64,000 bases of DNA. It comes from Endomicrobiales bacterium. GTDB taxonomy: Bacteria; Elusimicrobiota; Endomicrobiia; Endomicrobiales; JAFGIL01. The notes below the pieces were generated by a model. It was not told where the DNA came from. It ran no database searches and saw only the letters and a list, made by a program, of their open reading frames with translations. The stretch covers positions 3,251-67,250 of the forward strand of contig JAFGIL010000039.1 of NCBI GenBank assembly GCA_016929635.1, read 5' to 3'. Position numbers and translations under genes: made by a program. The number at the start of each line of letters is the position of its first letter. Position 1 is the stretch's first letter. Shown here piece by piece: positions 3,045-50,849 of this stretch.

Positions 3045-6000
3045 TTGCCCAAAAGGACTGACATACACAAAATATTAATAATCGGCTCAGGGCCTATCGT
3101 AATAAGCCAGGCGTGCGAGTTTGACTATTCGGGAACCCAGGCATGCAAAGCGCTTAGGGAAGAAGGTTTTAAAGTCGTGCTAATCAATTCTAACCCCGCC
3201 ACTATCATGACTGACCCGGAAATGGCAGACGCTACCTACATAGAACCAATCACCCCAGAGTTCCTGGAAAAAATAATCGAAAAAGAAAGGCCGGACGCGA
3301 TTCTTCCCACCCTCGGAGGACAGACAGGGCTTAACACGGCAATGAAAATCGTTGAAAACGGCGTGCTCGAAAAATACAACGTGAAGATGATAGGAGCCGA
3401 CTATAACGCAATAAAAAAAGCCGAAGACAGGGAACACTTTAAAAAAGCCATGCAGAAAATAGGGCTTGACCTTCCTAAAAGCGCCCTCGCTTACAACATG
3501 GAAGAAGCAAAACAGGCTTTGAAAAAAATAGGGCTGCCCGTAATCATAAGGCCCAGCTTTACTCTGGGCGGGACCGGCGGAGGAATAGCGACAACTCAGG
3601 AAGAGTTTGAAAGAATCGCAGACCTCGGATTAAAGAACAGCATGATAAACGAAATACTGGTGGAAGAAAGCGTGCTGGGATGGAAAGAGTTCGAAATGGA
3701 AGTAATGCGGGATAAAAACGACAACTGCGTAATAATATGCTCCATTGAAAACTTCGACCCTATGGGTATTCATACGGGCGACTCGATAACCGTAGCGCCC
3801 GCGCAGACACTGACCGACAGGGAATACCAGAAAATGAGGGATGCGTCAATTGCAATATTAAGGGAGATCGGAGTTGAAACCGGCGGCTCTAACGTCCAGT
3901 TTGCGATAAATCCCAAAGACGGCAGAATGGTCGTAATCGAGATGAACCCGCGTGTATCCAGAAGCTCTGCGCTTGCAAGCAAGGCAACGGGTTTTCCCAT
4001 AGCGAAGTTTGCGGCAAAACTTGCTGTCGGGTACACTCTTGATGAGATAAGAAACGACATAACCAAAGAAACCCCGGCCTCTTTCGAGCCGATGATAGAT
4101 TACTGCGTAGTCAAAATACCCAGGTTCACGTTCGAAAAATTTCCCGAAGCAGAGGACGTACTCGGTATATCAATGAAATCCGTGGGCGAAACAATGGCAA
4201 TAGGAAGGACTTTCAAGGAAGCCCTTCAAAAAGGATTAAGAGGGCTTGAAATCGGGCACTCGGGGCTGGACAACAAATTGAAGTTTACCCATATCTCGGA
4301 TGAAAAAATCAGGCACAGGCTGCAGGTGCCGAATGCTTCCAGGATATTCTACATAAAATATGCCCTGCAAAAGGGGTACAGCGTCAATGAAATAGTAGAG
4401 CTTACGGGAATAGACCCGTGGTTCATACACAATATGAAAGAAATCGTGGACCTGGAAAACGAAATAATAGACAGCAGAGAAAAAATGCTTTCTAAAACCT
4501 CAAAAAGGCAACATAGCAAATCCCAGACATATCATATACCGTTTGAATTAATGAAGAAGGCAAAACAGTACGGTTTCAGCGACAAGCAGCTTGCTCATCT
4601 GCTTAATTCCACCGAGCTGCATATAAGAAAACTAAGAAAAAAGCACGGAATAAAGGCAACCTTTAAACTAGTGGACACGTGCGCTGCCGAATTCGAGGCG
4701 TATACCCCCTATTATTACTCGACTTACGAGGAAGAGGACGAGGCAAGGGTATCCAGGAAGAAAAAAATAATGATTCTTGGCGGCGGGCCGAACAGGATCG
4801 GCCAGGGAATAGAGTTCGATTACTGCTGCTGCCATGCTTCGTTTGCCTTAAGGGAGCTCGGCTTTGAGACCATAATGGTTAACTCAAACCCCGAGACGGT
4901 CTCTACGGATTATGACACGTCTGATAAGCTTTATTTCGAACCCCTGACGTTCGAAGACGTGATGAATATAATCGACAGGGAAAAACCGCACGGGATAATA
5001 GTCCAGTTCGGGGGCCAGACTCCGCTTAACCTTGCAAGGCAGCTGGAAGATGCGGGAGCGCCCATTATAGGAACCAGCGTTGAATCCATAGACGTAGCCG
5101 AAAACAGGGAAAAATTCGCCAGGGTTTTAAAGAAGCTTAAAATCAACCAGCCGCCAAACGGCTCAACAAACTCCAGAAGCGAGGCAATAAAAATCGCAAG
5201 AAGCATCGGTTACCCGGTTCTGGTCAGGCCTTCTTACGTCCTGGGCGGCAGAGCGATGAGGATTGTGTATGACGAAACAGCGCTGCAGGAATTCATATGG
5301 GAAGCAAAAGAAATTTCACCCGAGCACCCGATTTTAATCGATAAGTTCCTGGAAGATGCCGCGGAAGTCGACGTGGATGCAATATCAGACGGCAAGAAAA
5401 CCGTAATCGGCGGAATTATGGAGCATATAGAGGAAGCAGGAGTGCATTCCGGAGACTCGGCGTGCGTGCTTCCCCCTCATACGCTGACCGATGAGATAAT
5501 CGATGTAATAAAAAAACAAACGTATGCGATATCAAAGGAATTGCAAGTAAAAGGCCTGATCAATATACAGTTTGCGGTAAAAAGCGACAAGGTATATATT
5601 CTTGAAGTGAATCCAAGGGCATCAAGGACGGTTCCCTTTGTAAGCAAATCAACAGGAGTACCCCTTGCAAAAATCGCGGCAAAGGTAATGGTCGGGAAAA
5701 AACTCCCGGAGCTGGGCATAATCAGGGAAAAACAGGTCGGGCATATATCGGTAAAGGAATCCGTGCTTCCTTTTTCAAGGTTTTCCGGTGTTGATATACT
5801 TCTGGGCCCTGAGATGAAATCAACCGGCGAAGTGATGGGAATAGACAGGACATTCGGGACATCCTTTTATAAATCCCAGTTGGCATCAGGACAGGTTCTT
5901 CCCAAAAAAGGCAGGGTTTTCCTGAGCGTTAAAAGCGACCATAAAAGAAACATAGTGTTTATTGCAAAAAAACTGTATGACATGGGTTTTAAAATAACCG

Positions 6001-6302
6001 CAACGGAAGGCACTCACAAGGTGCTTAAATCCAACAATATCCCTGCGGAAATAGTGGGCAAGATAGGAGAGGGAAGCACCAAAATTCTTGATCTTATCAA
6101 AAGTGACAAAATCAATCTTATAATAAATATCCCTTCAGGACGCGGCGGAAGGCATGACATGAAGCCCATGAGGAACCTTGCTGTCCTGCATGGCGTTCCG
6201 TGCATAACGACTATCCAGGGCGCGCAGGCAGTCGTCAACGGGATGGAGTCCGTATTAAAAGAGAGTTTTTCGGTTAAGTCGATACAGGAATACATAAAAT
6301 AA
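3045..6302 (+). CDS. carB: Carbamoyl-phosphate synthase large subunit, paralog 2 (full length, TTG start)
   Basis: Canonical N-terminus [31 protein letters not shown] Shine-Dalgarno (SD) sequence, taaggag, lies upstream of the TTG. 1085 aa with both ATP-grasp halves. Confidence 0.95.
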
Positions 6303-6420
6303 TTCAAAAATTAAAATTAAAAATGTAAAATTACGGTATCCCTCCTTGGCGGGATTATTTAAATAAGAAACCGCAGGCGACACATTAACTTTGATTTTTG
6401 CATTTTGATTTTTGAATTTT
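6301..6420. repeat. Long imperfect hairpin built from A-rich/T-rich heptamer words, with a central GC mini-hairpin
   Basis: The left arm aattcaaaaattaaaattaaaaatgtaaaatta is approximately the reverse complement of the right arm ttaactttgatttttgcattttgatttttgaatt. The centre carries atccc...gggat. It lies between the carB2 stop and the pyrG SD. Confidence 0.55.
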
Positions 6421-6432
6421 ATAAGAGGTATT

Positions 6433-8010
6433 ATGGCTAAATACATTTTTATTACAGGCGGGGTTGTTTCTTCTCTGGGAAAAGGCATTACCGCAGCATC
6501 TGTCGGAGCAATCCTTAAAAGCTGCGGATTAAAAGTCACTGTAATCAAGATTGACCCCTACCTTAACGTTGACCCCGGAACTATGAGCCCTTTCCAGCAC
6601 GGCGAGGTATTTGTAACCGATGACGGGGCCGAAACAGACCTGGATTTAGGGCATTATGAAAGGTTCATGGACATAAGCGTAACAAAAGACTGCAACTTCA
6701 CATCCGGAAGCGTCTATGACTCCATCATAACAAAAGAGCGCAAAGGCGAATTTCTCGGTGGGACCGTCCAGGTGATACCCCACGTTACAAACGAAATAAA
6801 ATCCAGGATAAAGAAACTGGACTCTAAAAACGACGTCGTGATTGTAGAAATCGGCGGCACAACCGGAGACATCGAAGGCCTGCCTTTTCTTGAAGCGATA
6901 CGACAGCTGAAACAGGAGATGGGGCCGCGCAATACGTGTTCGGTACATGTCACGCTTATCCCGTACATCCGTGCTGCCGCAGAGATGAAAACAAAACCCA
7001 CCCAGCAGAGCGTTGCAAAGCTGAGAGAGATAGGAATCCAGCCGGATATAATCGTATGCAGGACGGAGAAGCCCCTGAACTACGACCTTAAGAGAAAAAT
7101 CGCCCTTTTCTGCAACGTCAGGGAGGAAGCGGTAATAGAAGAAAAGGACGTGGATTACACCATTTACGAAGTACCCCTGGTCCTGAAAGAACAGAGGATG
7201 GATAAGCTTATAATGGACATACTTGATTTAAAAAAGAGGTCAAGCAATTTGAAGGTGTGGAGCGACCTGCTTGACAGGATAAAAAATCCGAAAGGAAGCG
7301 TAAACATTGCAATCGCGGGAAAATACACTGAGCTTAAGGATTCATACAAAAGCATCTGGGAAGCCCTGGAACACGCGGCTATCGCAAACAACGTGGAGAT
7401 AGACATTAAATATATAGACGTTGAAAAAAGGAATTTTAAGCAGGTATTGAGGGATATTGACGGCATTCTTGTGCCGGGCGGTTTCGGGGACAGGGGAATA
7501 GAGGAAAAGATCGAAGTTGTACATTTCGCAAGGGAAAACAGAATACCGTTTCTCGGTTTATGCCTCGGAATGCAGTGCGCTGTAATCGAGTTTGCAAGAA
7601 ACGTGTGCGGATTAAAAAATGCCAACAGCACAGAGTTTAACTCCAAAACGCCTTACCCGGTAATTGACCTGATGCTTGAACAGAAAAAAGTTACCAAAAT
7701 GGGCGGAACCATGAGGCTGGGCAAGTATCCATGCAAGCTGAAAAAGAACTCCCTGGCGCATAAAGCCTATAAAAAGGACTTGATTTATGAAAGGCACAGG
7801 CACAGGTATGAGTTCAACAATAAATACAGAAAGAAACTGGAAAAGACGGGGCTTAATATTACTGGAGTATATCAGAAAGGGAATCTTGTTGAGATAATAG
7901 AGCTGAAAAATCACCCGTGGTTTCTTGCAGTGCAGTTCCACCCGGAATTCAAGTCCAGGCCCAACAAAGCCCATCCATTATTCAAAGAGTTCATCAAAGC
8001 TTCCAAGTAA
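6433..8010 (+). CDS. pyrG: CTP synthase
   Basis: [20 protein letters not shown]-terminus and a glutamine amidotransferase C-terminus (GLCLGMQ, HRHRYE). The start is moved to the ATG at 6433, which follows aagagg. Confidence 0.95.
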
Positions 8011-8015
8011 AAAGA

Positions 8016-8070
8016 GGGACAGACACCATTTTTTATGTGTAAAAAATGGTGTCTGTCCCCTTTTTTCTTT
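8016..8070. terminator. Bidirectional intrinsic terminator between convergent pyrG and the V-ATPase operon
   Basis: Perfect 19-bp stem GGGACAGACACCATTTTTT (8016..8034) / AAAAAATGGTGTCTGTCCC (8041..8059) with a 6-nt loop. T-rich tracts follow the hairpin in both reading directions. Confidence 0.8.
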
Positions 8071-8071
8071 T

Positions 8072-9067
8072 TTAGCTTTCCTCGTCTATCATCTGGTCGT
8101 AGAACTCCAGGTAGTTGTTCTTTTTATCTCCCGAACGCAGCTTTATTGCTTCCCTGGGATGCATGTTTAACTGCCCGGTTATCATATAAGGAAGGCTGTA
8201 GCCCCAATCCAGCTTTTCCCTGAGAGGGAGAAAGTATTTCTCTACACATTCGATAACAGGCCTTAACTTGAAACGCGGGTTCTTAAGGAAACCTATTAAT
8301 AACTCCATAGGACAGTTCCCTGCGCCGCGCCCCATACCTTTTATGGTAACATCCAGCCGTGTTGCACCGACAATCAGAGCTTCAATGACGTTTGCATATG
8401 CCAGCTGCTGGTTATTATGCGTATGAACACCCACTTCCTTGCCGGTTCCTTTTAAAATATCAAGGAATTTTTTTGTCAGGTCCCTGATTTGCTCGGAATA
8501 AAGGGCTCCAAAGCTGTCAACGAGGTAAACAGCGCTGACAGGAGTCTGGGCCAGCACCTTTAATGCATCCTCCAGCTCGCGGTCCTTTACAACGGAGATT
8601 GCCATAAGCTGCATGATCGTTTCATAACCTTTATCATGCGCGTCTTTAATCATATCTATGGCAGTAGGTATCTGATGTATATATGCCGCAACCCTTATGG
8701 CGTCGAGTACGCTTTTTTCCTTAGGAAGTATGTCAGTATGATAATCCGTCCTTTCCGCATCCGCCATAGCACTCAGTTTAAGAGACGTTTTATTCTCGCC
8801 TACTATCTTCCTGATATCATCTTCGTCACAGAACTTCCATTTGCCGAATTTATCCGGGGAAAATATCTTTTTTGAAGCCTTATACCCCAGTTCCATGTAA
8901 TTAATACCTGCAGCGACACAGGTTTCATACACGGCTTTTACCAGCTGATCATCAAACTTATGGTCGTTTATGAGGCCTCCGTCCCTGATAGTACAATCCA
9001 GCAACTTGATTTCAGGCCTGTATGTAACCCATGAATCCACCTTCTGTTGTTGTTTCTCCTGAGTCAT
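8072..9067 (-). CDS. HMGL-like / pyruvate carboxyltransferase-fold (DRE-TIM) aldolase family protein
   Basis: LLDCTIRDGG near the N-terminus and a VGVHTHNN metal-ligand motif. A GGAGG SD is present. It is the last gene before the terminator. Confidence 0.6.
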   Translation of the reverse strand: MTQEKQQQKVDSWVTYRPEIKLLDCTIRDGGLINDHKFDDQLVKAVYETCVAAGINYMELGYKASKKIFSPDKFGKWKFCDEDDIRKIVGENKTSLKLSAMADAERTDYHTDILPKEKSVLDAIRVAAYIHQIPTAIDMIKDAHDKGYETIMQLMAISVVKDRELEDALKVLAQTPVSAVYLVDSFGALYSEQIRDLTKKFLDILKGTGKEVGVHTHNNQQLAYANVIEALIVGATRLDVTIKGMGRGAGNCPMELLIGFLKNPRFKLRPVIECVEKYFLPLREKLDWGYSLPYMITGQLNMHPREAIKLRSGDKKNNYLEFYDQMIDEES

Positions 9068-9098
9068 CTAAAATCTACCTCCGTTTCTTTATCCCGTC

Positions 9099-9683
9099 TT
9101 ACCAGGTAACAATATATATGCAGGAATCATCCGCATTTTTCCTGCAGGCTTTTTCTTTTTCCTCTTTCAAATTGATGTTCATTGAATCCTTCGGTTTGAA
9201 TTTTTTTGCAACAGCCAGAATAATCCCCTTATCGAAATCGCAGGGGTACGGATTGTTGCATGTCATTGTAACTTCTTTGTCCCCTGTTTTCTTAAACCCG
9301 TAATGCCCTATGCCTTCCTCCATCGAACCGTTTACAGGATTAAACAAGACCTTACCGCTGACCCTGTGGTTCATGTGATATGCAACGTCAATGGAAGCCA
9401 GGGCATCCTCAATAGTCTTAACCTGAGGCGGCCAGTCGGCATTCTCTGGAATTTTCGAGCCTATCTGCTGGAGCGTGTACGGCCCCAGCCTCTCTGCTAT
9501 CGTTTTAAATGAATCCAGCCATGCCTGCTGGGAATACCACCTTAAAGGCTGTGGGTCGTCTATCCCGTTACTTTTAAGGATGTCCAAAGCCAGCTGTTTG
9601 AACTCGCCCATACCCTGTACTACCGAAAGAATCGTCTGACCGTTTACTTCAACTCCGGATGTAAAAGCAATAAACTGTGCCAT
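9099..9683 (-). CDS. Hypothetical protein (194 aa), co-oriented with and tightly linked to the V-ATPase genes
   Basis: A clean ORF with an AAGGAGG SD 23 nt after the atpK stop. I recognise no family. Confidence 0.5.
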   Translation of the reverse strand: MAQFIAFTSGVEVNGQTILSVVQGMGEFKQLALDILKSNGIDDPQPLRWYSQQAWLDSFKTIAERLGPYTLQQIGSKIPENADWPPQVKTIEDALASIDVAYHMNHRVSGKVLFNPVNGSMEEGIGHYGFKKTGDKEVTMTCNNPYPCDFDKGIILAVAKKFKPKDSMNINLKEEKEKACRKNADDSCIYIVTW

Positions 9684-9706
9684 AATAATCCTCCTTTTCT
9701 AATTAA

Positions 9707-10147
9707 TTATCCCTTTGGTATTGCTGTAAGAAGAAAAACCATCACGAACAAAGCAACGGTTTCAATAACACCTAATACCATTATGTAGTTACCAAACCCT
9801 TTTCCTGTTTCGCTGAACGCATCGCACGCCTTTGCGCCCGCGCAGCCCTGCATCCATGCGGATACACCCATGGCTATGCCTCCGAAAAGGCCCAGCAGTG
9901 CCTGCTGCAGCCATGCTTCAGGCGGCATGTTAGCGTTTCTTATTGCATTGCGCAGTATCATACCATAAATAGTCTGAGACAAAGGAGCGCCGACAAACGC
10001 GATTATTATAAAAGCAGCTGCTTTATTCTGTATAAAAGCTTTTTTCCAGGCCCCGATAGCTGACATGCCTGCGGCTCCTGCTCCAAGCCCTGATCCGACA
10101 GCAGCCAGAGACAACGAAAGCCCTAAATCTCCTAATCCACTAATCAT
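9707..10147 (-). CDS. ntpK: V-type ATPase proteolipid subunit K (c-ring)
   Basis: 146 aa, Gly/Ala-rich, four predicted helices. The carboxylate sits in the last helix (GVIETVALF). Motifs align to Enterococcus hirae NtpK. Confidence 0.85.
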   Translation of the reverse strand: MISGLGDLGLSLSLAAVGSGLGAGAAGMSAIGAWKKAFIQNKAAAFIIIAFVGAPLSQTIYGMILRNAIRNANMPPEAWLQQALLGLFGGIAMGVSAWMQGCAGAKACDAFSETGKGFGNYIMVLGVIETVALFVMVFLLTAIPKG

Positions 10148-10523
10148 TTTTCTGTCCTCCCTTTAATTTATGTTCTACGGCAGTGATGAATTTTTTTAAC
10201 TCGATAGGTTTATGCAGTACGTCATTAATATCATAACCGAGCGCTTCCAAATCCTGCCTATAGGTGTTTACAGCCATACTGGCGGTAAACACGATAACCG
10301 GAACGCCCTTCTTTCTGGTTTCTTTAATGACTTCAATGCCGTTCACTTCAGGCATTTTTAAATCAACAACCGCCAAATCGATTTTTCCTTCTGTATTAAT
10401 TTTCTCTATGGCCTCTGCGCCTCCGTAAGCTTCAAGGATTTCGTAATCATACCTTCTTAAAAACCTTCCCATGACCTCAACTATCCTTGGCTCGTCATCA
10501 ACCAAAAGAATTCTTTCTCCCAT
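10140..10523 (-). CDS. Stand-alone CheY-like response-regulator receiver domain
   Basis: LLVDDEP acidic pair, VVDLKMP phospho-acceptor Asp, VFTAS Thr and HKP Lys are all present. The SD is GGGGGAAG. It overlaps the ntpK start by 8 nt. Confidence 0.85.
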   Translation of the reverse strand: MGERILLVDDEPRIVEVMGRFLRRYDYEILEAYGGAEAIEKINTEGKIDLAVVDLKMPEVNGIEVIKETRKKGVPVIVFTASMAVNTYRQDLEALGYDINDVLHKPIELKKFITAVEHKLKGGQKND

Positions 10524-10538
10524 AGTATTTGCTTCCCC

Positions 10539-12317
10539 CTAACCCTTGAAAGGTTTATACTCCGTCCCTGACCACTGCATATTTAAATGCCCGGAAAACT
10601 CAAGCATGTTGAGCCTGATCCCATGCACTATCACTGCCATACCGCCCAGAACTATGTTTAACCCGTGCCCGAACAGCAGTATAAGCGCGAAACCAAGCCC
10701 GCTTAAAATATTTCCCCAGCCAAGGCTTAAAGCCATGTCGTTGAAACTGCTTGCAATGGTAACTGACGCATAACCCACGGCAAAAAGCCTTAAATAGGAA
10801 ACTATGTGTGCAAAAGAGTTTACGAAATTGTTAAGCAGGTTCCCCAAACCCGAGAATATGCCTTTTATAACGTTCTTTCTGTTAAACTCAGAAAATAGTA
10901 TTACCAAAACAGCGCCTGATATCAGCAGCCACTTGGCTATTTCAGGAAACTGTTTATTCAAAACAACATTGCCTGCAAGAAAATAAAGGCCCCACAGGAC
11001 TAAAATCCATCCAAGCTGCCCGATTATTTTCAGGGTTTTCCTCAAACGCAGGCCGACCATCAGATGAGCGATGCTTAACTGAATCAATCCGATGATAAAA
11101 TTCAGCTTTATAATGTTCTCCATGTTTGAATCGATGTAACTGTTAACGCTGTCTACAATAAATAATTTAAAAAAAGGCATCCCGGCTATTTTTTCATACC
11201 CGAACCAGGTGCCTGAAAGGGCTCCCCAGATTACCGTGCTGAAAGACAATATGTAAAAAAGCAGGAAAGGCTCGGCCGGCGCCTTGGAAAATTTGCGCCT
11301 CAGAATAAAAGTCGCCAGGACAAACAGCAAACCATAGCCAGCATCGCCTATGAGCATAGCGAAAAATACGCTGAAAAATATCAGAAATACCTGGCTTATG
11401 TCATACTCCCTGTAACCGGGGACGGTTCCCATAAAATCAAAAACCGGCTTAATAACACGGCTTAAAAAAGAATCTGATAAAAGGACAGGGGCTTCCTCGT
11501 TTTCATCCAAATCCTGCACCAGCAATCCCCATTTGTTGCCTGACGCTGCCTGTTTAAGGGATTTGATTCTTGTAACCGGGCAGTAGCCCTGCATATAAGA
11601 AAACCCTTCCTCGATGCCCATGCTGTTCTGAACCAGGCTGAACTCAAGCGATTTTTCCAGCTTTTCCTTTTCTTTAACCAGTATATCGCGGAACCCCGCA
11701 AGCTCCGAAATTTCTTTTTCTGTCAGTTTGATATCCAGAGTATTTGCTTTTAACTCTTCCTGCAGCTCATCCAGGCTTTTTTCAGGAATGCTTATTTCAT
11801 TGAACGGCAAGGCCTCATCGGCTTCTCTTGCAACCAGGACGAAATATATAATGCTCCCCTTTTGATTTATTATTCTGACTATTTTATCTTCCGGGATCTT
11901 CTTAAACTCCTTTTTTGTACAGGAATACAGTTTAAAAAAGACTCCGCTTTCATTCAGCATCTTAGCATCTCTAGGCGAGAAAGACCCCCAAATTTTTTGT
12001 TCTGCGATCTTGTCCTTGATGTCTTTTTCGTTCTGGATGAATCTTTTTCTTCTTTCTTCCATAGTTAAAATGCTTCTCGTTATATCGGTATAATCAACAC
12101 CCTTTGAATATTCCTTTTGGTTATCAACCCCTTCAGGAAGGACGTTTATGGCTTTTTCATAATTGAGCAGCTTTGACTTCAGCTCATCAATGCTTTCCGC
12201 TGCGGGCGGCTTGACGTAGCTTACGTGCAAAACGCCTTCCTGCCTGAGCGTAAGGAGGGCGTTCTCCGCTTTTGATTGCGATATTAACAAAGTAACTTTT
12301 TTCATTTCTACAATCAT
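10539..12317 (-). CDS. ntpI: V-type ATPase subunit I (a-subunit, stator/ion channel)
   Basis: 592 aa with a coiled-coil soluble N-terminal half and a polytopic C-terminal half containing the conserved LRL Arg region (HIVSYLRLFAVG). Confidence 0.85.
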   Translation of the reverse strand: MIVEMKKVTLLISQSKAENALLTLRQEGVLHVSYVKPPAAESIDELKSKLLNYEKAINVLPEGVDNQKEYSKGVDYTDITRSILTMEERRKRFIQNEKDIKDKIAEQKIWGSFSPRDAKMLNESGVFFKLYSCTKKEFKKIPEDKIVRIINQKGSIIYFVLVAREADEALPFNEISIPEKSLDELQEELKANTLDIKLTEKEISELAGFRDILVKEKEKLEKSLEFSLVQNSMGIEEGFSYMQGYCPVTRIKSLKQAASGNKWGLLVQDLDENEEAPVLLSDSFLSRVIKPVFDFMGTVPGYREYDISQVFLIFFSVFFAMLIGDAGYGLLFVLATFILRRKFSKAPAEPFLLFYILSFSTVIWGALSGTWFGYEKIAGMPFFKLFIVDSVNSYIDSNMENIIKLNFIIGLIQLSIAHLMVGLRLRKTLKIIGQLGWILVLWGLYFLAGNVVLNKQFPEIAKWLLISGAVLVILFSEFNRKNVIKGIFSGLGNLLNNFVNSFAHIVSYLRLFAVGYASVTIASSFNDMALSLGWGNILSGLGFALILLFGHGLNIVLGGMAVIVHGIRLNMLEFSGHLNMQWSGTEYKPFKG

Positions 12318-12320
12318 TTT

Positions 12321-12923
12321 TTAACTCGCAGCTTTGTTTACCAGCTTTGTTTTTGCTATTTTCCCGCGCACAACGCCGGCTGTCTGTTCATCGCCCAGGA
12401 ATATGTTAATCACGCGTATATTGTCCCTGCTTTCAGGAATTTTAACTTTTTCAAACAGGTTTACGCGCTGTGTTGTTGTACGCAGCTCTTCCCGAAGCAG
12501 ATTTATCTGCTGTTCGATAATCTCTCTTTCTTTTTTCAATGACAGAAACTCCTTAAAAACCTCAACTGCACGGTCTATCCATAACGGTAATCGGAAAATA
12601 TCATATTTTTTTATTGTGAAATTAGCTTTCTTGAAAACCGGGATATCAACACCTGCAATGCTTGCAGCATCCGTCTCAATGTTATCGAGCTTAACGATAT
12701 CCGTAAAACCAACTTCCTCTCCGAAAACCTCCACCCACGACATTATCTCGTTCTTCATATCCGATTCTTTGTCAGAAACAACCTGATAGTTGTTCCTCAC
12801 TCTGTTTATCTCGGTCTGGAGCTGTTTTCTTTTCAGCTCCAAAGTAGGCAGATACCTTGAAAACCTTTTCAATGCATCTTTCTGCTTCTTCAGTTCGTTT
12901 TTTGTATATTTTATTTTGGACAT
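12321..12923 (-). CDS. ntpD: V-type ATPase subunit D
   Basis: 200 aa. N-terminus KNELKKQKDALKRFSRYLPTLELKRKQL, typical of V/A-type D subunits, and the expected operon position. Confidence 0.85.
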   Translation of the reverse strand: MSKIKYTKNELKKQKDALKRFSRYLPTLELKRKQLQTEINRVRNNYQVVSDKESDMKNEIMSWVEVFGEEVGFTDIVKLDNIETDAASIAGVDIPVFKKANFTIKKYDIFRLPLWIDRAVEVFKEFLSLKKEREIIEQQINLLREELRTTTQRVNLFEKVKIPESRDNIRVINIFLGDEQTAGVVRGKIAKTKLVNKAAS

Positions 12924-12924
12924 T

Positions 12925-13005
12925 TTTAAGTTGTAAGTCCTAAGTCGTAAGTGATAACTACATAATAATTTTTTTTTACAACTTACCGCTTATCACTTAA
13001 GGCTT
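12925..13005. repeat. Heptamer-word inverted module (xxTAAGT x4 ... ACTTAxx-type x3-4)
   Basis: tttaagt tgtaagt cctaagt cgtaagt (12925..12952), a 25-nt A/T spacer, then acaactt accgctt atcactt (12978..12998). It fills the whole 73-nt ntpB-ntpD gap. Confidence 0.6.
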
Positions 13006-14295
13006 TTTCGGCCAGAATTTGTTAATCAGGTCCGAGCGGAAGCTCGTCTCCATCGGGTCAAAGCATTCAGCAAGTATCTCCCATCCCGTATCCAATGCCT
13101 TCTCTAAAGGTATATTCACGGAAAGAGACATCAGCCTGGACTCGAACATCTCGCCGTACTTTAATAACTTGTTGTTCCACGCACTCATGCGGAAACCCAT
13201 TGCCTTCTTCTCAAGGGTCTCCTTGAACTGGGCATACAGCTGTATCATGCCGTCCATTATTGCGCGGTGATCCTCGCGCGACTTTTTATTGACTAACTGT
13301 TTCAGCCTGCTCAAGGAACCGAAAGGCTCTATGCGTTTGTTCCTTAAATAAAACTGCCCCTCTGTAATGTATCCTGTATTGTCCGGAACAGGGTGCGTCA
13401 CGTCATCGCCCGGCATGTTCGTAACGGAGATAACCGTTATGGAACCGCTTCCCTCAAAATCCACTGCTTTCTCGTATCTCTGTGCGAGCTGGGTATAAAG
13501 GTCTCCGGGATATCCCCTGTTCGAAGGCACCTGCTCCATTGTAATAGCTATCTGCTTTAAAGCATCAGCAAAATTCGTCATGTCGGTCAAAAGAACAAGC
13601 ACTCTTTTGTTCTTCAATGCAAAACCTTCTGCAACGCTCAGGCACATATCAGGGACCATAAGTCCCTCGACTATGGAATCAGAAGCGGTATGGACGAAGA
13701 AAACAGACCTGGATAAAGCTCCGCCCTGTTCCAGCTGGCTCCGAAAATATAAATACTGGTCATACTTAAGCCCAATTCCGCCAAGTATGATTATGTCAAC
13801 CTCTGCCTGAAGCGCTATGCGCGCAAGAAGCTCGTTGTACGGCTCGCCCGATACGGAAAAAATAGGTATCTTCTGGGACTCGACCAGCGTATTAAACACG
13901 TCAATCATCGGGATGTTCGTGCGTATCATTTTGCTGGGTATTATTCTTTTTGCGGGATTTACTATAGTACCGCCGACTTCGATAAAATTTTCGTTAAGTT
14001 CAGGGCCGTTATCCATTGGCTCGCCAATACCGTTAAAAATTCTTCCGAGCAGGTTTTCGGAAAATGAAACCTGCATCCTGTGACCCAGGAAACGGACCTT
14101 GTCTCCCGTGGAAACGCCGCGGCTTCCCGAAAAAATCTGCAGGGAGACGTTTTCCCCGTCCATGCGGATAACCTGCGACAGGGACTTGCCGTGAGCCGAC
14201 GTCACTTCAGCCAGCTCTTTATACATTATGTCTTTTGCGTTGACGCTGACAACGTTCCCGACTATACTTTCGATTCTATTGTATATTTTTTTCAT
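12997..14295 (-). CDS. ntpB: V-type ATPase subunit B (non-catalytic)
   Basis: 432 aa homologous to A/V-type B subunits ([21 protein letters not shown]..., [20 protein letters not shown]), with no canonical Walker A motif. Confidence 0.9.
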
Positions 14296-14325
14296 TTAAG
14301 TTATCCTTGTTTTATACATGTTTTT

Positions 14326-14400
14326 CGTAGGGTAGGTTTACCTGCCCGTTCCCGCAACGGGACTAGTCCCGTTGCGGGAACGGGCAAAGCCTCGCCCTAC
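14326..14400. repeat. GC-rich nested palindrome; the core is a 42-bp perfect palindrome (14344..14385)
   Basis: gcccgttcccgcaacgggac-ta-gtcccgttgcgggaacgggc is self-complementary. Outer cgtaggg...gccctac arms flank it. It sits inside the operon between ntpA and ntpB. Confidence 0.8.
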
Positions 14401-14401
14401 T

Positions 14402-16129
14402 TCATTTTTTTTCCTCCAGCTTAGTGTTTATCTCTTTTTCCTTCTTTATAAATTCATCCGAATTGAAAGGCATATAGTTCCAGTCTATGAATAGCTGCCT
14501 TAACTCATAAAACGATACCCTTGCTTTTTCTTTATCTTCAAATGAAAACTTCTTTTTTAAAACGTCTACAACCTTTGCAAACATATACTTTTGCCTGTCA
14601 GCAGTCGTTGATGCATCAACGGGATCAAACCCGTTCTGCTGTATGTAAACGTCGTCCAAAAACTCGCTTTTGAGATAAATAATGAAATCATCTATCGAAG
14701 TGCCTTCTTCGCCGACAACGGTCATCATCTGTTTTACCTCGTTGCCCCTGAATAATATATTCTTTGCGTAAGCAACCAGGCCTTCATCCACAAAGGATTT
14801 GTATTTGCTCCAGCTTTCAAGAGGGTCAACTGAGGGAAATTTTCTTGCGTTGGCACGGTCGCGGGACAATCCGTGGAACGCGCCTACCACTTTCAGGGTG
14901 CTCTGGGTAACCGGCTCCTCGAAGTTTCCTCCTGCAGGGCTTACAGTACCGCCGATCGTAAGTGTGCCGTTTTCATTATTATTAAGCTTCACGCTTCCCG
15001 CCCTTTCGTAAAATTCAGCGATTCTTGATTCAAGGTAAGCAGGATATGCTTCCTCTCCGGGTATCTCTTCCAGTCTTCCGGACAGTTCCCTCATTGCCTG
15101 GGCCCATCTTGAAGTAGAATCAGCAAGAAGCAGCACGTTTAATCCCATCTGGCGGTAGTACTCAGCTATTGTAATTGCAGTATATACGCTGGACTCTCTT
15201 GCCGCAACGGGCATTGAGCTAGTATTGCAGATAATAACCGTCCGCTCCATAAGAGACTTTCCTGTCCTGGGGTCAGTAAGTTTCGGGAACTCCCTGAGGG
15301 TCTCGACAACCTCTCCTGCCCTCTCGCCGCAGGCTGCTATGATAACAATATCCACTTCCGCGTGCCTGCTTGTAATCTGCTGCAGAACGGTTTTTCCTGC
15401 CCCAAACGGGCCGGGAATACAGTATGTCCCTCCTTTGTTTACGGGAGAAAACGTATCTATCAAACGTATCTTCGTAACGAGCGTTTCGCTCGGCGCCAGT
15501 TTTTCCTTGTATGCCTTTACGGGGAGTTTTACGGGCCATTCAAACATCATTGTTAAATCAAGCTCATTGCCGTCTTCATCTTTTACTTTCGCGATTTTAT
15601 CATTTACTTTGTATTTTCCTTTCGGAACAATTTTTTCTATCTTATATTTTCCTTTTAAATAAAACGGCACCATCACCTTGTGGTCGAAAATCCCTTCCGG
15701 CACCCGCCCCAGAAAATCGCCGCCTGTCACGACGTCGCCGGCCTTGCAGAGAGGGTTGAACTCCCATGTTTTTTTCATATCAAGGGCATTTTTAAAAACG
15801 CCTCTCGGCAAAAAGAAGCCGTATTCGTCTGCTATATGAACCAGGGGGTTCTGTAAACCGTCGTATATCTGGCTTAATAATCCCGGGCCAAGCTCAACCG
15901 ATAAGAGCTCTCCGGAAAACTCCACCTTGTCTCCAACTTTCAGCCCTGAAGTCTCCTCATAAACCTGAAGGTCCGCAATGTTTTTCCTTACGCGCACAAC
16001 CTCGGATTTTAAACGCGTCTTTCCTTCAAGGAACGCGTAACCGACTTCATTCTGCAGAACGTCGCCGTCAAACTCCACGGATATCATGTTTCCGCTTATA
16101 AACCTGACAACTCCCTGTGTTTTGTTCAT
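14402..16129 (-). CDS. ntpA: V-type ATPase catalytic subunit A
   Basis: 575 aa with Walker A GPFGAGKT and the non-homologous insert typical of A subunits. Confidence 0.95.
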   Translation of the reverse strand: MNKTQGVVRFISGNMISVEFDGDVLQNEVGYAFLEGKTRLKSEVVRVRKNIADLQVYEETSGLKVGDKVEFSGELLSVELGPGLLSQIYDGLQNPLVHIADEYGFFLPRGVFKNALDMKKTWEFNPLCKAGDVVTGGDFLGRVPEGIFDHKVMVPFYLKGKYKIEKIVPKGKYKVNDKIAKVKDEDGNELDLTMMFEWPVKLPVKAYKEKLAPSETLVTKIRLIDTFSPVNKGGTYCIPGPFGAGKTVLQQITSRHAEVDIVIIAACGERAGEVVETLREFPKLTDPRTGKSLMERTVIICNTSSMPVAARESSVYTAITIAEYYRQMGLNVLLLADSTSRWAQAMRELSGRLEEIPGEEAYPAYLESRIAEFYERAGSVKLNNNENGTLTIGGTVSPAGGNFEEPVTQSTLKVVGAFHGLSRDRANARKFPSVDPLESWSKYKSFVDEGLVAYAKNILFRGNEVKQMMTVVGEEGTSIDDFIIYLKSEFLDDVYIQQNGFDPVDASTTADRQKYMFAKVVDVLKKKFSFEDKEKARVSFYELRQLFIDWNYMPFNSDEFIKKEKEINTKLEEKK

Positions 16130-16697: not shown

Positions 16698-17303
16698 CTA
16701 TTTTTTATCCAGGATTTCTCTTAACTTCGGATTCAGATACTCCTTAAGCATCTCGCTTATTCCCGCATCCGTAATGTCGTAATAAACGTTGCTGCCCTTA
16801 AGCCCTATCATGAATCCTTTTTTAATCTCTTTTACTGGTTTGAACTCAACCCCGTGCTTCATTTTAGCCGGAAGTGCCGAAGTCACCAGTTTCTCGATAT
16901 TTTTCTTGTCCTTATCGTTCAATAAAACTTCAATATCCCTGGTTTTTCCGTCTTTAAGCCAGTTGTCGAAAAATTTTATCAGGATCTCTTTAATAGTACT
17001 ATCAGATAAAACCTCTGCTGTTTTTTCCTTCAGCAGGTTGTCAAATACCTTTGTTATCTCGTTTTTCAATCCCAGAACAATGTTTCTTGCGGACTGCTCC
17101 AGAGCCTTTTCGGAGCTTGATTGAAATTTTTCCACTTCTTTTTTTGCGTTCTTTACGGTCTCTTCCGCATCCTTTTTTGCCTTAGATACTATCTCCGCAG
17201 ACTTATCCTCGGCCTGTCTAATAATTTTGGAAGACTCCTCTTTTGCCTTGGTAACGCCCTCTTCCTTAATCTGGGAAATCAATTCCTGTAGTTGAGATTC
17301 CAT
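16698..17303 (-). CDS. ntpE: V-type ATPase subunit E (peripheral stalk)
   Basis: 201 aa with a Lys/Glu-rich coiled-coil N-terminus (AEIVSKAKKDAEETVKNAKKEVEKF). It is the first gene of the operon. Confidence 0.75.
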   Translation of the reverse strand: MESQLQELISQIKEEGVTKAKEESSKIIRQAEDKSAEIVSKAKKDAEETVKNAKKEVEKFQSSSEKALEQSARNIVLGLKNEITKVFDNLLKEKTAEVLSDSTIKEILIKFFDNWLKDGKTRDIEVLLNDKDKKNIEKLVTSALPAKMKHGVEFKPVKEIKKGFMIGLKGSNVYYDITDAGISEMLKEYLNPKLREILDKK

Positions 17304-17321
17304 ATTAACACCTCGTTATGC

Positions 17322-17365
17322 AGACCGTTCCCGGAACGGGCCTAGGCCCGTTCCGGGAACGGTCT
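17322..17365. repeat. 44-bp perfect palindrome, same family as 14344..14385
   Basis: agaccgttcccggaacgggc-ctag-gcccgttccgggaacggtct. It shares the blocks cgttcccg / aacggg / ctag / cccgtt / cgggaacg with the 14344 copy. It lies between the metF stop and the ntpE start. Confidence 0.8.
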
Positions 17366-17379
17366 TTTTACTTTAACCG

Positions 17380-18243
17380 TTATTTGCTGTTTTCAATTAT
17401 CTCCGGTATGTATTCCTCCATACCGATTGCCATTATATGAACACCGTCAGCGAAACTTCTTAACTCTTTTATTATTTCGGAGCATATCTTCATGCCTTCT
17501 TTTAAAGGGTCCGATGCCTGCTCGATGCGGCGGACAATCTTATCTGGGATATTCACTCCCGGCATGTTCAAAAGGAACTTTATAAACTGCGCAGATTTAA
17601 TCAATATAACACCGGGCAGGATTTTTACTTTATGCTGACTGACCAGTTTCAAAAATCCTTTGTACTGCTCTATATCGTAAATCGGCTGTGTCTGAAAAAA
17701 AGCAGCTCCTGCCTGAGATTTCTTTCCCATCATAATAACCTGCAGGTCAACGGGAGAGGCTGTAGGATTAACAACAGCACCCAGACAAAACTTAGGAGAC
17801 CCTTTGAGGTGCTTGCCTACCATGTCAACTCCTGTTTCAAGCTGCTTTGCAACAGTCAACAGCTGGACCGTATCAAGGTCATAAACAGGTTTTGCATCTT
17901 TATACTCCCCGATTTTATTGTGGTCACCGCTTAGAATCAAAACATTCTCTATACCCAGGACGTAAGCGCTCAATAAATCCGACTGCAGCGCAATCCTGTT
18001 TCTGTCGCGGCACGTCATCTGAAGTATCGGTTCATAACCTTTTTCTTTAATAAGCCGGCAGATAGCCATTGAACCCAGGCGCATCGATGCGCGCTGATTG
18101 TCTGTAACGTTTATACCATCTACAATCGGGCCCAGCAAATCCGACTTCTTCATCAATGATTCTACATCTGTCCCCTTAGGAGGAAAAAGCTCGGCTGTGA
18201 TTACGAATTTATTTTTATTCAGCTTCTCGCAAAATTTGCTCAT
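17380..18243 (-). CDS. metF: Methylenetetrahydrofolate reductase (MetF, acetogen-type small form)
   Basis: 287 aa. The MTHFR-fold motifs TAELFPPKG, DGINVTDN and LQMTCRDRN are present. A 4-nt ATGA overlap links it to the upstream metV-like gene. Confidence 0.85.
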   Translation of the reverse strand: MSKFCEKLNKNKFVITAELFPPKGTDVESLMKKSDLLGPIVDGINVTDNQRASMRLGSMAICRLIKEKGYEPILQMTCRDRNRIALQSDLLSAYVLGIENVLILSGDHNKIGEYKDAKPVYDLDTVQLLTVAKQLETGVDMVGKHLKGSPKFCLGAVVNPTASPVDLQVIMMGKKSQAGAAFFQTQPIYDIEQYKGFLKLVSQHKVKILPGVILIKSAQFIKFLLNMPGVNIPDKIVRRIEQASDPLKEGMKICSEIIKELRSFADGVHIMAIGMEEYIPEIIENSK

Positions 18244-22702: not shown

Positions 22703-22773
22703 CTCCGGGACCAGGATTCGAACCTAGACAAAGGGATCCAAATTCCCTTGTGCTACCATTACACCATCCCGGA
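22703..22773 (-). tRNA. tRNA-Gln (anticodon UUG); CCA not encoded
   Basis: The reverse complement folds as a cloverleaf: acceptor tccggga/tcccgga, anticodon stem aggga/tccct with loop aTTTGga, and T arm ctagg-ttcgaat-cctgg. Confidence 0.8.
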
Positions 22774-45000: not shown

Positions 45001-48000
45001 CTATATCAAGAAGTTCTTTTTTTGTGGCTTTAGGCCTTTCAATTCCCGGTAAAGCCGGAATATAAACAAAACCGGCATCGGGTGAATCATCATCAATAAT
45101 TCTGAAGTCTGCATCAATATGTGTGGAGATTGGATTAAAACAAGGTAGAATGACTAAATCCTGCTCAATACTTAAATCTGCAGGCACTTGCGCTAACTCA
45201 ACTAACACAGGAGGGCCTCTAACATCCTTGCTATCTTCTAACCATTTCAGCATATTTGCTTTTATATCATCACTAACAACGCCTGCAATCCAGTAAAATA
45301 AATCAGGATAATTATTATAAAGCGCTTCGTAGATTTCCGGATTATACGGATCATTCTCTACCATTTCTAAGAATTTTTTGACATCTCTGCCCCTCTCACC
45401 TTTTTTCATAAGAGATTCTGGTGTTATGCTTAAAACCATGCGGATCGGCTCTTCACCGGTGAGGATATTTTTAAGAAATCTTCTGCTTTTTGACGAGTCA
45501 CTATCAAAAAATAATCTTGTAAATTCCCTTTTCATCGTACGGTTGGAAGGGTCATTCAGCGTTTCTATAAATTTAATAACTTTGCCATATTTTAAGCCAT
45601 ACTCAGAGTGTTCGATTAATTCCTTTGCTGTATTTGTAGTACTTACAACATAGTTTTTTATTTCTATAAAATATAACTGGCCGTCCTTCCTTGCCACAAT
45701 ATCTATTTCCGCTGTAACCATAGATAATCCCAGGTATATTATTTCAAAACCGGCTCCTTCAAGGGCTTCTGCGTGTTTAAGCTCCCCCAATTCTCCGAAT
45801 ATACTTGTACTTCTTTCATAAACAACGCTCAACCCTGATTCTATCCTGAATATCTTATTTTCCATGCCAGGAACATTTACAAATTTTTCTATAAGGCTAA
45901 AACTTTCTTCGCTTAACACATCAGAATGATAGATATTTCTCGACGCCTTTAATAATTTCAGAATTAATGCATATTGTCTATTTTCAAGTATTTTCCTAAA
46001 CCAGTCAGCTTTCGCCATTTTTAACAAGAATAATAACAGTCTAACCGATGATGTTTTTTCCGGTATGTCTATTAATTTTTCCAACGTCTCCAGTTCTTCT
46101 ATATCTCCTGACAAAATAGCAGCAGCGAATCTTGCTTCTTGGTCTTTTTTAACTAATCCGCTTTCTCTTAATAGATCAAAAATCCGATCCAGGATTTCAT
46201 ATGCTGTTTCCAGTTTTGTAGATGATAGTTTTGTCCCATCCAAATTTTCTATTATTGATTTTTTATAAGGTCCTTCAGGTATAGCATGTAAATCCAAAAA
46301 TTCTCTCAATTTTTCTTCCATATTTGGATTAAGATTTCTTCGGAATATTATTCTACACTGCCTAACCTGCTCTTTAGAAAGTCCTAATTTATGTACAATT
46401 CTCATAAAATCTACGGTTTTCTGTTTAAAACTAGACAACAGAGCTTGACTTTTTTGTGCTTCAGAAAAGATTATAGGAGAATCTGATAGGCTGGATTCCC
46501 TCTCAATTAGCGTAATAAAACTTGATACTAAAGCCGCTCTTCTTTCAACTTCTGCAATGGTTTTTGAATTTTTCAAAATATATCCTATCTCCTCTTTATA
46601 TTTAACCTCAATTCCTAGCTCTGCTAATTTTTGTCTAATTTTATGTTCATTGCTTGTAGGCAATGTTGAAGCAACTTTCATCCACTTGGGGAGTTTGCCA
46701 ATTGAAACCAGATACAAATATAATGAATTCCATATAAAATGCGCTAATGTGCTTGCTATGTAAGATATTAAAGGCGAAAGCAGGGGTGATATTGGCAGGG
46801 TAATATACGAAACTAAAATATAAACTGAGGTAAATATAGTAGCAGGTATAAAAATCAATAAATCTCCAGCTGTTGGAGGTTCTTTCTCAACTATCCATCT
46901 GACAATTATATGTATTGCTGAAAAAACTATTATGCTTGCTGCCCAGGATATTAAATAACTGTATGCGTTCGCTCCCAATAAAGAGAAAATGCCTTGTATT
47001 ATTAAACCTCTGAGCAAATACTCTTCCCAGAAAGGCGCTGCCAGAATAGTTGCAATATGAGCTTTTGTGCCTTCCCCGAGCCATCTCTTTGCTATCGGGT
47101 CAACCACCGAACCGGGTTTGGAAGTGATACGAGCAATTAAATCAGCCAGCCTGCTGCCAGTCCCTGGAATGGAATCTGATATATCATCAAGACCGGTAGC
47201 CTGATATATGTCTGTCTTTTGTTCTGTTTCGGGATCAAACTGGTTTATGTCTCCGGTTTCGATGCTGTAAATAAAAGTTTCCGGGTTCTGGAGATCGCTG
47301 CAGGTAACCGTAATTAATATTGAATCATCCCCTTTTTCTTCCAGTCCTATATTTAAGCCTGAGCCCTTAAAAGTCACATCCAATATCTCCTGAACTTTTT
47401 CTATACCTCCTTTTTTGACTTCGGCCCCTAACTTTTTTACGTTCTCTAAAACCTCTTTATCAAGAATTGTTTTGGTATAGACCCTGCCCGCTAAAACCTT
47501 TTCTCCGGGAGATGACTCGTCGGTATGCATTAATCTTGTTAACGTTTCAAGCGCCAGCATGTCAACAGGTGCTGGCCCGGAGATATTAGACAAAATCCTG
47601 CTTTGCTGCTGAATCAAATCAGAATATACTGATTCGGCAAATGTTGTATCCTCCGTTACATTTGGAGTGATTACAATATATGGAACACCTTTTTCTTTAA
47701 ATATCCCCTTTAAACCTGATGTATGGAAACCACCGGTAATAAGCACAACCACATTCTCGTAATCAGTAACTGGTAATCGGTCATCAGTTTGTATTTGTTG
47801 ACTGATTACTGATGACTGATGACCGATTACTTTGCAGTTTGCAAACAGGCAGTCATTTCTTTTCAAGTTTACCGCATAGTAATCATTTAAAAGTTGCAAA
47901 TATGCTGAGATTCCGGAAAGTTTGCCGTTACCAACGTAACGCGTCCATAATAGCTCAAATTTTGCGAAGTTTTTATTTATATATTCATAATCTTCGGCTG

Positions 48001-50767: not shown

Positions 50768-50772
50768 CTTTT

Positions 50773-50843
50773 TAGATACTTAATTCTCGATTCTCGATTT
50801 CAAAAACTTAGCATCGAGCATCTGGCATCGAGTATCGAGTATC
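50773..50843. repeat. Heptamer-word inverted module (t-x-GAT-x-C x4 ... g-y-ATCGA x4)
   Basis: tagatac ttaattc tcgattc tcgattt, a spacer caaaaactta, then gcatcga gcatctg gcatcga gtatcga gtatc. It lies between the pdxA start and the surA-like stop. Confidence 0.6.
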
Positions 50844-50849
50844 TATACG

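Follow-up and report, generated by a model that had tools for sequence, protein, structure and literature searches.

Hairpin-forming pairs of degenerate heptamer arrays at cistron junctions and within a giant gene of an Endomicrobiales bacterium

Introduction

What are the repetitive, self-complementary modules that sit between housekeeping genes of an Endomicrobiales bacterium, and why is each of them written in a 7-nt word of its own? The question is raised by a stretch of 64,000 nucleotides of contig JAFGIL010000039.1 (assembly GCA_016929635.1), the whole of which we call the window. An initial annotation of this DNA had claimed three intergenic modules and two coding copies with a common design: a 7-nt period, about four degenerate units per arm, a second arm complementary to the first, and a different word in each copy. 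All five were found where they had been placed, and the design holds at each of these loci, which we designate modules A to E. In brief, the modules are hairpin-forming pairs of degenerate heptamer arrays, and this much is secure. How they originate and why they are retained can be stated less firmly, and these two questions are weighed below against comparisons with other genomes.

Results

A 7-nt period and complementary arms at five loci

To characterize the periodicity of the window, we scanned it by lag-k autocorrelation, requiring at least 16 matches in a 21-nt scanning window, with 30 dinucleotide shuffles as the null for lag 7. This analysis revealed seven lag-7 arrays against a shuffle mean of 0.07 (maximum 1), and other lags gave 0-3 arrays each, with the exception of lag 14, a harmonic, which gave five. 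When only the 16 intergenic gaps of the window were considered (2.7 kb in total, 200 shuffles), five lag-7 arrays remained where 0.10 are expected, and 0/200 shuffles reached five. The heptamer phase thus survives formal autocorrelation, and the enrichment over shuffled intergenic sequence that the initial annotation had set as a check is present. Tandem Repeats Finder places period-7 arrays at 6301-6333, 6390-6420, 12934-12952, 47799-47831, 48969-49002, 50783-50799 and 50810-50843. The arrays of the window are confined to the five loci, with both arms present at each, and a scan of the window at a laxer threshold found no copies beyond them.

The window's longest inverted repeats include all five loci (A is repeat I2, B is I19, C is I8/I11, D is I9/I20 and E is I7), and all five fold into long imperfect nested hairpins, with z scores of -2.4 to -6.2 against shuffles. 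Arms have about four units each. The words, AAATTAA, xxTAAGT, TCAGTxA, GCGxAxA and TCGATxC, are different at each locus and share no common sequence across the five modules; they are mostly A+T-rich, and none has G-tracts.

The initial annotation had also read the exact complementary blocks as ordered X..Y..rc(X)..rc(Y), where rc is the reverse complement, which would allow pseudoknot-like pairing. Interleaved blocks do exist in module D, but they are not a feature of the design. Across 16 modules, arm scores were equal in nested and unit-preserved order (16/16), and minimum-energy folds are nested hairpins. An interleaved architecture was therefore rejected; the block order arises because the arms are tandem repeats, and any pair of tandem arrays yields it. 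Since nested order scores no better than unit-preserved order, the variable positions of the arms are not mirrored, and there is no sign of unit-specific covariation or of fold-back copying.

Modules bridge stop and start codons or lie in frame

The genes of the window are housekeeping genes, including two carB copies, pyrG, a V-type ATPase operon, pdxA and a surA-like gene, and each of the three intergenic modules A, B and E spans the gap between two co-directional cistrons. Module A lies in the 130-nt gap between the carB stop codon (6300-6302) and the pyrG ATG (6433); it begins within that stop codon, and its 3' arm stops just short of the AAGAGG ribosome-binding site of pyrG (6423-6428). 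Module B wholly fills the 73-nt ntpB-ntpD gap, holding the ntpB stop codon (12999-12997) inside it and ending 3 nt before the ntpD AUG (12923-12921). Module E begins 4 nt past the stop codon of the surA-like gene (50852-50850), ends 5 nt before the pdxA AUG (50767-50765) and makes up 76 nt of the 82-nt gap. Neither ntpD nor pdxA has a Shine-Dalgarno sequence after the module, whereas most genes of the window have one. The same stop-to-start placement recurs elsewhere, at loci L008, L049 and L012 and at L141 16939-17033.

An intrinsic terminator was considered for modules A and B and rejected: neither has a G+C stem followed by a T run, and a terminator scan of positions 6000-14500, which recovered a textbook bidirectional terminator at 8016-8059, detected neither module. 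Rfam 15 at the gathering threshold gave a single match in the window, one tRNA at 22703-22773. A Pfam search that took in essentially all open reading frames (ORFs) of the 64-kb window found no transposase, no RAYT (a transposase of repetitive extragenic palindromic, or REP, elements), no integrase and no reverse transcriptase.

Modules C and D lie within a giant ORF that has a signal-peptide-like N-terminal start and whose first 600 residues match no Pfam family. Both are in frame and stop-free, and conserved protein sequence resumes on either side of each. Translational bypassing or RNA excision of the coding modules was set aside, given that the window copies can be read straight through and that a frameshift in the orthologous gene of L082, described below, amounts to one extra unit.

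Extra DNA relative to homologues

We compared the ntpB-ntpD junction with that of 25 relatives and the giant ORF with the only eight homologues found, all of which come from Endomicrobiales/Elusimicrobiota metagenome-assembled genomes (MAGs) or unlabelled metagenomes. Most of the 25 relatives have an ntpB-ntpD gap of 0-25 nt, compared with 73 nt in the window, and often the genes abut in a TAGATG-type junction; L018 and L035 carry independent hairpin inserts, made of other words, at the same junction. The stretch that corresponds to module D has 24 residues against about 9 in six of the eight homologues, making it about 15 longer, and an insert of like length and different sequence is present at this site in the two closest homologues. 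Modules B and D, at least, are extra DNA relative to their homologues. For module E the evidence is weaker, as the surA-pdxA gap of 82 nt in the window compares with about 0-30 nt in L090 and L092, and the linker that contains module C varies in length across all homologues.

The nearest relatives are at best 78% identical in NtpB (genome contigs scanned) and at best 56% identical in PdxA (metagenomes scanned); PyrG relatives are 75-77% identical, and carB and pyrG are not syntenic in them. One surveyed locus, L081, is from the same strain as the window DNA and has an identical sequence. The window's own PyrG matches a protein from an Endomicrobiales MAG at 100% identity.

Table 1 Arms, words and host ORF of the five heptamer-array modules in the window
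Feature	Position	Strand	Description
Module A 5' arm	6301..6335	+	A-rich heptamers AATTCAA AAATTAA AATTAAA AATGTAA AATTA; starts inside carB stop
Module A centre	6336..6386	+	51 nt containing small stems rich in G+C; forms the hairpin's loop or cargo
Module A 3' arm	6387..6424	+	T-rich heptamers TTTGATT TTTGCAT TTTGATT TTTGAAT
Module B ntpD-side arm	12921..12959	-	+ strand xxTAAGT x4; 3' arm in mRNA
Module B ntpB-side arm	12971..13005	-	+ strand AxxxCTT-type heptamers; 5' arm in mRNA; includes ntpB stop
Module C left arm	47762..47789	-	TCAGTAA CTGGTAA TCGGTCA TCAGT; in frame; giant ORF, variable linker
Module C right arm	47799..47833	-	TGACTGA TTACTGA TGACTGA TGACCGA TTACT; perfect 16-bp stem with left arm
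Module D left arm	48932..48963	-	TAGCGTA GAGCGTT TAGCGGA TAGTGGA; in frame, giant-ORF residues ~55-80 from the N-terminus
Module D right arm	48968..49012	-	TATACGC TCTACGC TCTCCGC TATCCGC
Module E pdxA-side arm	50772..50800	-	+ strand TAGATAC TTAATTC TCGATTC TCGATTT; 3' arm in mRNA
Module E surA-side arm	50809..50847	-	+ strand GCATCGA GCATCTG GCATCGA GTATCGA GTATCTA
Giant ORF, 7378 aa	27035..49171	-	Host of modules C and D

Heptamer arrays are a lineage-wide feature, and a minority are paired

A wider census, covering the window plus 161 loci (2.06 Mb), returned 112 lag-7 arrays. We defined an inverted partner by at least 17/21 matches within 600 nt, with reverse, complement and direct matches as controls, and found one for 33/112 arrays against 4-10 for the controls. 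Pairing is therefore strongly enriched yet not obligatory, occurring in about 30% of arrays. The design recurs in other genomes, but its supposed constancy stands only in part: pairing exceeds the controls, whereas about 70% of the census arrays have no partner. Nor is the compact length of about 65-120 nt constant, as up to about 420 nt can separate the arms, which can enclose a gene. The view of the modules as fillers of intergenic gaps was likewise half right, as three modules of the window do fill gaps but about 30% of arrays are in-frame inserts within ORFs (78/112 arrays are outside long ORFs and 34/112 inside).

Array density in the window is about 1 per 8 kb (8 in 64 kb). It reaches 1 per 7.9 kb in Omnitrophota-labelled loci and is 1 per 559 kb in spirochaete-labelled loci; one Elusimicrobiota locus (L163, 21.6 kb) has no arrays. 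Metagenome loci near PdxA relatives (882 kb) hold 80 lag-7 arrays, compared with 2-24 at other lags and 63 at the lag-14 harmonic. The 112 arrays have a G+C content of 34% against 47% for their host sequences, a median length of 5.3 units and, in most, 3-4 invariant positions, and dozens of different words occur across the loci surveyed. The stop codon of a long ORF lies within 10 nt of 29/112 arrays, where random placement gives 10.5.

Two further settings were observed. In G+C-rich (57-62%) metagenome loci, A+T-rich arrays (xCGATTTT, GGATTTT) directly follow an apparent tRNA 3' end (…CCACCGCCA), at L094 113-150, L100 4011-4052, L102 252-295, L143 2635-2669 and L099 7241-7275. Upstream of ribE, between it and a divergent gene, an inverted pair (ATTGAxx, then xxTCAAT) is conserved at L117 3194-3290, L141 8290-8370 and about eight related loci. 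Hexamers resembling a -35 element (TTGATT/TTGACG) lie 17 nt before a conserved TATAAT and are overlapped by the left array of the pair; this arm is therefore probably outside the ribE transcript.

Whole-array exchange and cargo among close relatives

Near-identical genomes allow the turnover of arrays to be followed. L090 and L091 have flanks about 99% identical, and the same site in purM holds ACTATCA x4 in the former and CGCTCAT x4 in the latter; the two arrays have a 3-nt length difference, and additional substitutions fall in the following 20 nt. Nearby coding sequence of this pair contains hairpin-forming indels of 21, 30 and 33 nt, the 21-nt one being an insert of L091 within an AAAACGG array, and a 200-nt intergenic patch rich in CTGTAAT words is rewritten between the two. 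The regions of difference are L090 1820-1883, 13871-14035 and 4745-4944. In L145, L148 and L149 pdxA is identical over about 65 aligned bases, and divergence begins at the first array unit. Among indels between near-identical locus pairs there was no clear excess of multiples of 7, in a small sample in which the alignment breaks at arrays. A search of 2 Mb found no second copy of the 21-, 30- and 33-nt inserts or of the core of module A.

PyrK, the electron-transfer subunit of dihydroorotate dehydrogenase, has 321 aa in L012 (2819-3784) and 255 aa in L021 (4338-5105). The extra length in L012 consists of five in-frame peptides derived from heptamer arrays, and a 150-nt stretch of genuine coding sequence is enclosed by one inverted pair. 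In L021 the right-hand array occurs alone, at a site common with L012 and in related words (GAACTAT, CAACTAT).

The junction between pdxA and ksgA offers a natural series of intermediates: empty, filled, and with the cargo lost. Alternative inserts lie there between identical boundaries in genomes 94% identical, and the empty state is a gap of 22-50 nt. In the filled state, seen at five loci (L141 10084-10585, L131 9974-10470, L103, L109 and L150), AGAATTx x4 is followed by a gene for a four-helix-bundle protein of 129-136 aa and then by xAATTCT x4. This cargo may be of the 23S rRNA intervening-sequence or Avd-like type, a candidate family assigned by eye. L134 is an internal-deletion derivative with most of the gene lost, the arms kept and a gap of 129 nt; L112 has a plain hairpin with 8-mer arms in a 109-nt gap; and L117 (5016-5200) combines the 8-mer arms of L112 with about 73 nt of nested small hairpins, giving a 161-nt insert in a 182-nt gap. 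The word AGAATTx of L141 occurs at 10090 and again at 16958, where it fills another cistron gap, of 95 nt, 7 kb from the first site. We considered heptamer arms as general ends of four-helix-bundle cassettes and rejected the idea: phmmer against all ORFs in 2 Mb placed the gene at one orthologous site (the five loci), and the cargo is therefore a single case, not a rule.

Discussion

A proposed origin by slippage or insertion, and survival through coupling

Our preferred reading is a composite, and taken whole we regard it as about as probable as all its competitors together: the five modules are hairpin-forming pairs of degenerate heptamer arrays that arose by slippage or insertion and survive through the coupling of cistrons. 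The descriptive part is observed directly; the steps of origin and coupling are less secure. In favour of the composite are the periodicity and pairing far beyond chance, the extra DNA at modules B and D, the stop-to-start placement and the high array density of the lineage. Turnover in relatives also speaks for it: the L082 orthologue of module C has a different word and is off by exactly one heptamer in frame, array words differ at purM and beside pdxA, and the pdxA-ksgA junction shows its series of cargo and decay. The Xanthomonas arrays offer a parallel. At the DNA level, replication slippage in 7-nt steps would make an array. A polymerase-footprint rationale for a 7-nt step has reportedly been put forward by Mrazek (2007), and among long simple repeats heptamers rank first in abundance in many bacteria. 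The second arm might form by template switching, with the word copied onto the other strand, or the whole module might arrive as a small pre-formed cassette.

Survival would then be decided by selection on the landing site, with coupled cistrons tolerating only a self-complementary insert. The abutting ntpB and ntpD of the relatives have no separate ribosome-binding site, and this implies termination-reinitiation coupling. A self-complementary insert would be tolerated at such a junction because its folding puts the stop codon and the next start codon adjacent again; the hairpin would thereby keep the coupling and perhaps the stability of the mRNA. Within genes, only in-frame, stop-free inserts in loops would persist. 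Any function would be that of a structural intercistronic mRNA hairpin, independent of the word, with a REP-like stabilising role or a role in processing as possibilities.

Several points weigh against this composite. The relatives that were compared are, as their sequences indicate, distant (identity of at most 56% for PdxA and 77% for PyrG). The unmirrored variable positions in the arms of the 16 modules run contrary to a simple fold-back copy. Replacement of a whole array between 99%-identical strains fits stepwise slippage poorly and looks more like cassette exchange or gene conversion. To be tolerated in an essential gene, an insert must have a length divisible by 3 nt, and steps of 7 nt do not yield this, yet PyrK of L012 has five array inserts. 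The coupling idea lacks the support of a strand asymmetry: the sense strand is more stable than the antisense strand in 11/16 modules, with a mean difference of -0.96 kcal/mol, and selection at the RNA level through G-U asymmetry was rejected on the same comparison, which gave no signal. The left arm of the ribE-upstream pair lies over the -35 region and so is probably untranscribed. Lastly, the way in which the second arm forms is something that we infer.

Small mobile cassettes as a possible alternative

The strongest competitor holds that the modules are very small non-autonomous mobile cassettes, similar to MITEs (miniature transposable elements with inverted repeats), REPINs, Rickettsia palindromic elements (RPEs) or small dispersed repeats (SDRs), with inverted heptamer ends and sometimes cargo, which enter cistron junctions or genes (there in frame) and decay to hairpins. 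We regard this as possible, though well short of probable. The exchanges described above argue for it: different pdxA-ksgA inserts occupy identical boundaries in 94%-identical genomes (L141, L117, L112, L134), a whole array is swapped between 99%-identical strains with hairpin indels in the coding sequence nearby, and the PyrK of L012 accommodates five in-frame inserts, one pair of them around genuine coding sequence. A single word also occurs at two loci of one genome, not only in L141 but also in L165, a PyrG relative (74%), where AGTGAAT/AGTGAGT is arrayed at 3261-3320 and at 13551-13581, 10 kb apart. Against mobility, the five copies of the window have no sequence in common, and target-site duplications are not visible by eye around modules A, B and E or around the pdxA-ksgA inserts. 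The 64 kb are devoid of the mobility genes listed above, the indel sequences lack a second copy in 2 Mb, the four-helix-bundle cargo is limited to one orthologous site, and the majority of arrays are unpaired.

A bolder form of the idea takes inverted arrays to be the ends of word-agnostic tiny cassettes that are active in Elusimicrobiota, Omnitrophota and unlabelled sediment lineages, land precisely at cistron junctions or in frame in housekeeping genes, at times carry cargo (an Avd-like four-helix-bundle gene, for example), are swapped between near-identical strains and decay to short hairpins like those of the window. This stronger version we consider rather doubtful.

Regulatory hairpins, contingency loci and binding sites as unlikely readings

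A selected cis-regulatory RNA hairpin at each locus, serving as an RNase III-type processing site, a barrier to 3' exonucleases or a translational damper, is unlikely in our view. Such a hairpin could set the expression ratio of NtpB (three copies) to NtpD (one), and the exact placement from stop codon to start codon would suit it, as would the independent gains at ntpB-ntpD in L018 and L035. The sense strand of the three intergenic modules of the window folds 1.5-3.2 kcal/mol better, and two changes in the outermost unit of module E complement each other (GTATCGA to GTATCTA and TCGATAC to TAGATAC). However, strand asymmetry is absent overall, unit-specific covariation is lacking, and the same design is also present within coding sequence as well as at a promoter. 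Most relatives have no module at the corresponding junctions, and neither an Rfam match nor a terminator signature was found.

The giant ORF invites a different idea, namely that gain or loss of one heptamer at the coding copies, and conceivably at further ones, switches a giant secreted protein by phase variation, which would make them contingency loci. At the site orthologous to module C, L082 (1565-1670) has different and unrelated words, AAGATGC x6 followed by inverted ATCxTGx x4, with four perfect AAGATGC units. The gene is split there into two called ORFs that are exactly one heptamer out of frame, and removing one unit or adding two restores a continuous ORF to the contig end; the host protein, moreover, has a signal-peptide-like N-terminus. 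The window copies are nevertheless in frame, and the units of C and D are degenerate, with no two adjacent units identical, so slippage is disfavoured there. What is seen in L082 could reflect an assembly consensus or a pseudogene, and phase variation leaves the intergenic copies and the second arm unexplained. We consider it very unlikely.

Weakest is the proposal that the arrays, as DNA or as mRNA, are bound by a protein that reads repeats (an S1, Csp or CsrA-type binder), as proposed for TAACTGA repeats, which is hardly credible: arrays do adjoin start codons in a regular 7-nt register and the module C word TxACTGA is one mismatch from TAACTGA, but with five unrelated words in five modules and dozens across loci no single sequence-specific binder fits, and arrays also occur inside ORFs.

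Consequences for genome analysis

The modules lengthen proteins, mimic frameshifts and split genes, and skew alignments and structure prediction in MAGs, in which they are also likely assembly break points. If the preservation of coupling is true, it would supply a simple rule for which insertions can be tolerated at operon junctions.

Other features of the window

The carB genes mentioned above are tandem genes for the large subunit of carbamoyl-phosphate synthase (58-2721 and 3045-6302), the first of which is truncated by the window start, and a stand-alone response-regulator receiver gene (10140-10523) lies within the V-type ATPase operon. The same gene string contains two perfect 44-nt G+C-rich palindromes in enlarged gaps. 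One, at 14343-14386, is TGCCCGTTCCCGCAACGGGACT followed by its reverse complement and occupies the 106-nt ntpA-ntpB gap; the other, at 17322-17365, is AGACCGTTCCCGGAACGGGCCT followed by its reverse complement and occupies a gap of 76 nt (17303-17380). They have the core CCGTTCCSGSAACGG in common, which has 8 matches against 0.11 expected, and every arm is itself a small hairpin. These palindromes are a second, unrelated type of intercistronic hairpin insert.

Comparison with known systems

The modules are the Endomicrobiales form of the heptamer arrays, of the short tandemly repeated repetitive (STRR) or 'long simple sequence repeat' (LSSR) type, that are found in cyanobacteria, Xanthomonas and Beggiatoaceae. 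The paired-array design had been thought undescribed, and here the initial annotation has to be corrected, as inverted heptamer pairs were already reported in Xanthomonas (Rehm et al. 2015, PMC4692102). The (GGGANTN)n arrays of that genus mostly have 4 units, in which 5 positions are conserved and 2 vary, are 89-93% intergenic, mostly between co-directional ORFs and near or overlapping the upstream stop codon, have no known function, and include 70-75 convergent inverted pairs per genome that can form stem-loops; their length and sequence differ among close species (PMC4692102). The likeness is considerable: window arms have about four units, all five loci and 33/112 census arrays are paired, and the stop codon falls inside modules A and B and 4 nt ahead of module E. 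Xanthomonas, in contrast, uses a single genome-wide G-rich, quadruplex-prone word (GGGAATC), whereas the five words of the window are mostly A+T-rich, and the lineage here is Elusimicrobiota/Omnitrophota, with many in-frame gene copies and some pairs that bracket cargo.

The comparison with cyanobacterial STRR elements was apt, both being lineage-typical intergenic tandem heptamer arrays. Like STRR/LSSR heptamers, the arrays lie for the most part between genes (78/112) and characterize a lineage, with a density of 1 per 7.9 kb in Omnitrophota loci and of 1 per 559 kb in those of spirochaetes. STRR families reportedly have fixed words, CCCCAGT, TTGGTCA and CAACAGT, and none of the window words matches these three. 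Few paired repeats were found in Nostoc, the genus of the GGGGA(C/T)T repeats, unlike at the loci of the window. Nostoc SDRs are said to be conserved families of 21-27 nt within tandem heptamer repeats; the 21-nt insert in the AAAACGG array of L091 looks similar, and no second copy of it was found.

TAACTGA direct repeats of Beggiatoaceae, cyanobacteria and Bacteroidetes have 2-6 units, are mostly intergenic and upstream of start codons, and show 7-nt-step indels between strains, with shorter, repeat-free gaps in relatives (MacGregor 2015, PMC4679880). They have a single word in 169 direct sets with one indirect repeat, and a protein-binding site was proposed (PMC4679880). The modules of the window differ from such one-word, rarely paired repeats in having one word per locus and in being paired throughout.

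REP, BIME and REPIN elements are short imperfect palindromes between co-directional operon genes, and as mRNA hairpins they can stabilise upstream cistrons; REPs are high-copy families of conserved sequence that are moved by RAYT transposases. The modules, by contrast, have no common sequence, and their arms are tandem arrays. No RAYT lies in the 64 kb of the window. RPEs are conserved palindromic families of 100-150 bp that occur in frame in genes and between genes. Modules C and D match their in-frame insertion, but not their conserved family sequence or their aperiodicity. As for MITEs, the inverted arms are present, whereas the target-site duplication (by eye) and the family sequence are absent.

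A full-text literature search (Omnitrophota with tandem repeats; heptamer repeats with intergenic) found no reports of such arrays in Elusimicrobiota or Omnitrophota. In many bacteria no long simple repeat is as over-represented as heptamer arrays, which are dense here in both of these phyla. New relative to Xanthomonas and cyanobacteria are the word that changes with each locus, the A+T-rich arrays, the colonisation of housekeeping genes, the bracketing of cargo and the exchange at strain level. The copies in the window are ordinary members of a lineage-wide phenomenon that is odd enough in the relatives to deserve study at genome scale.

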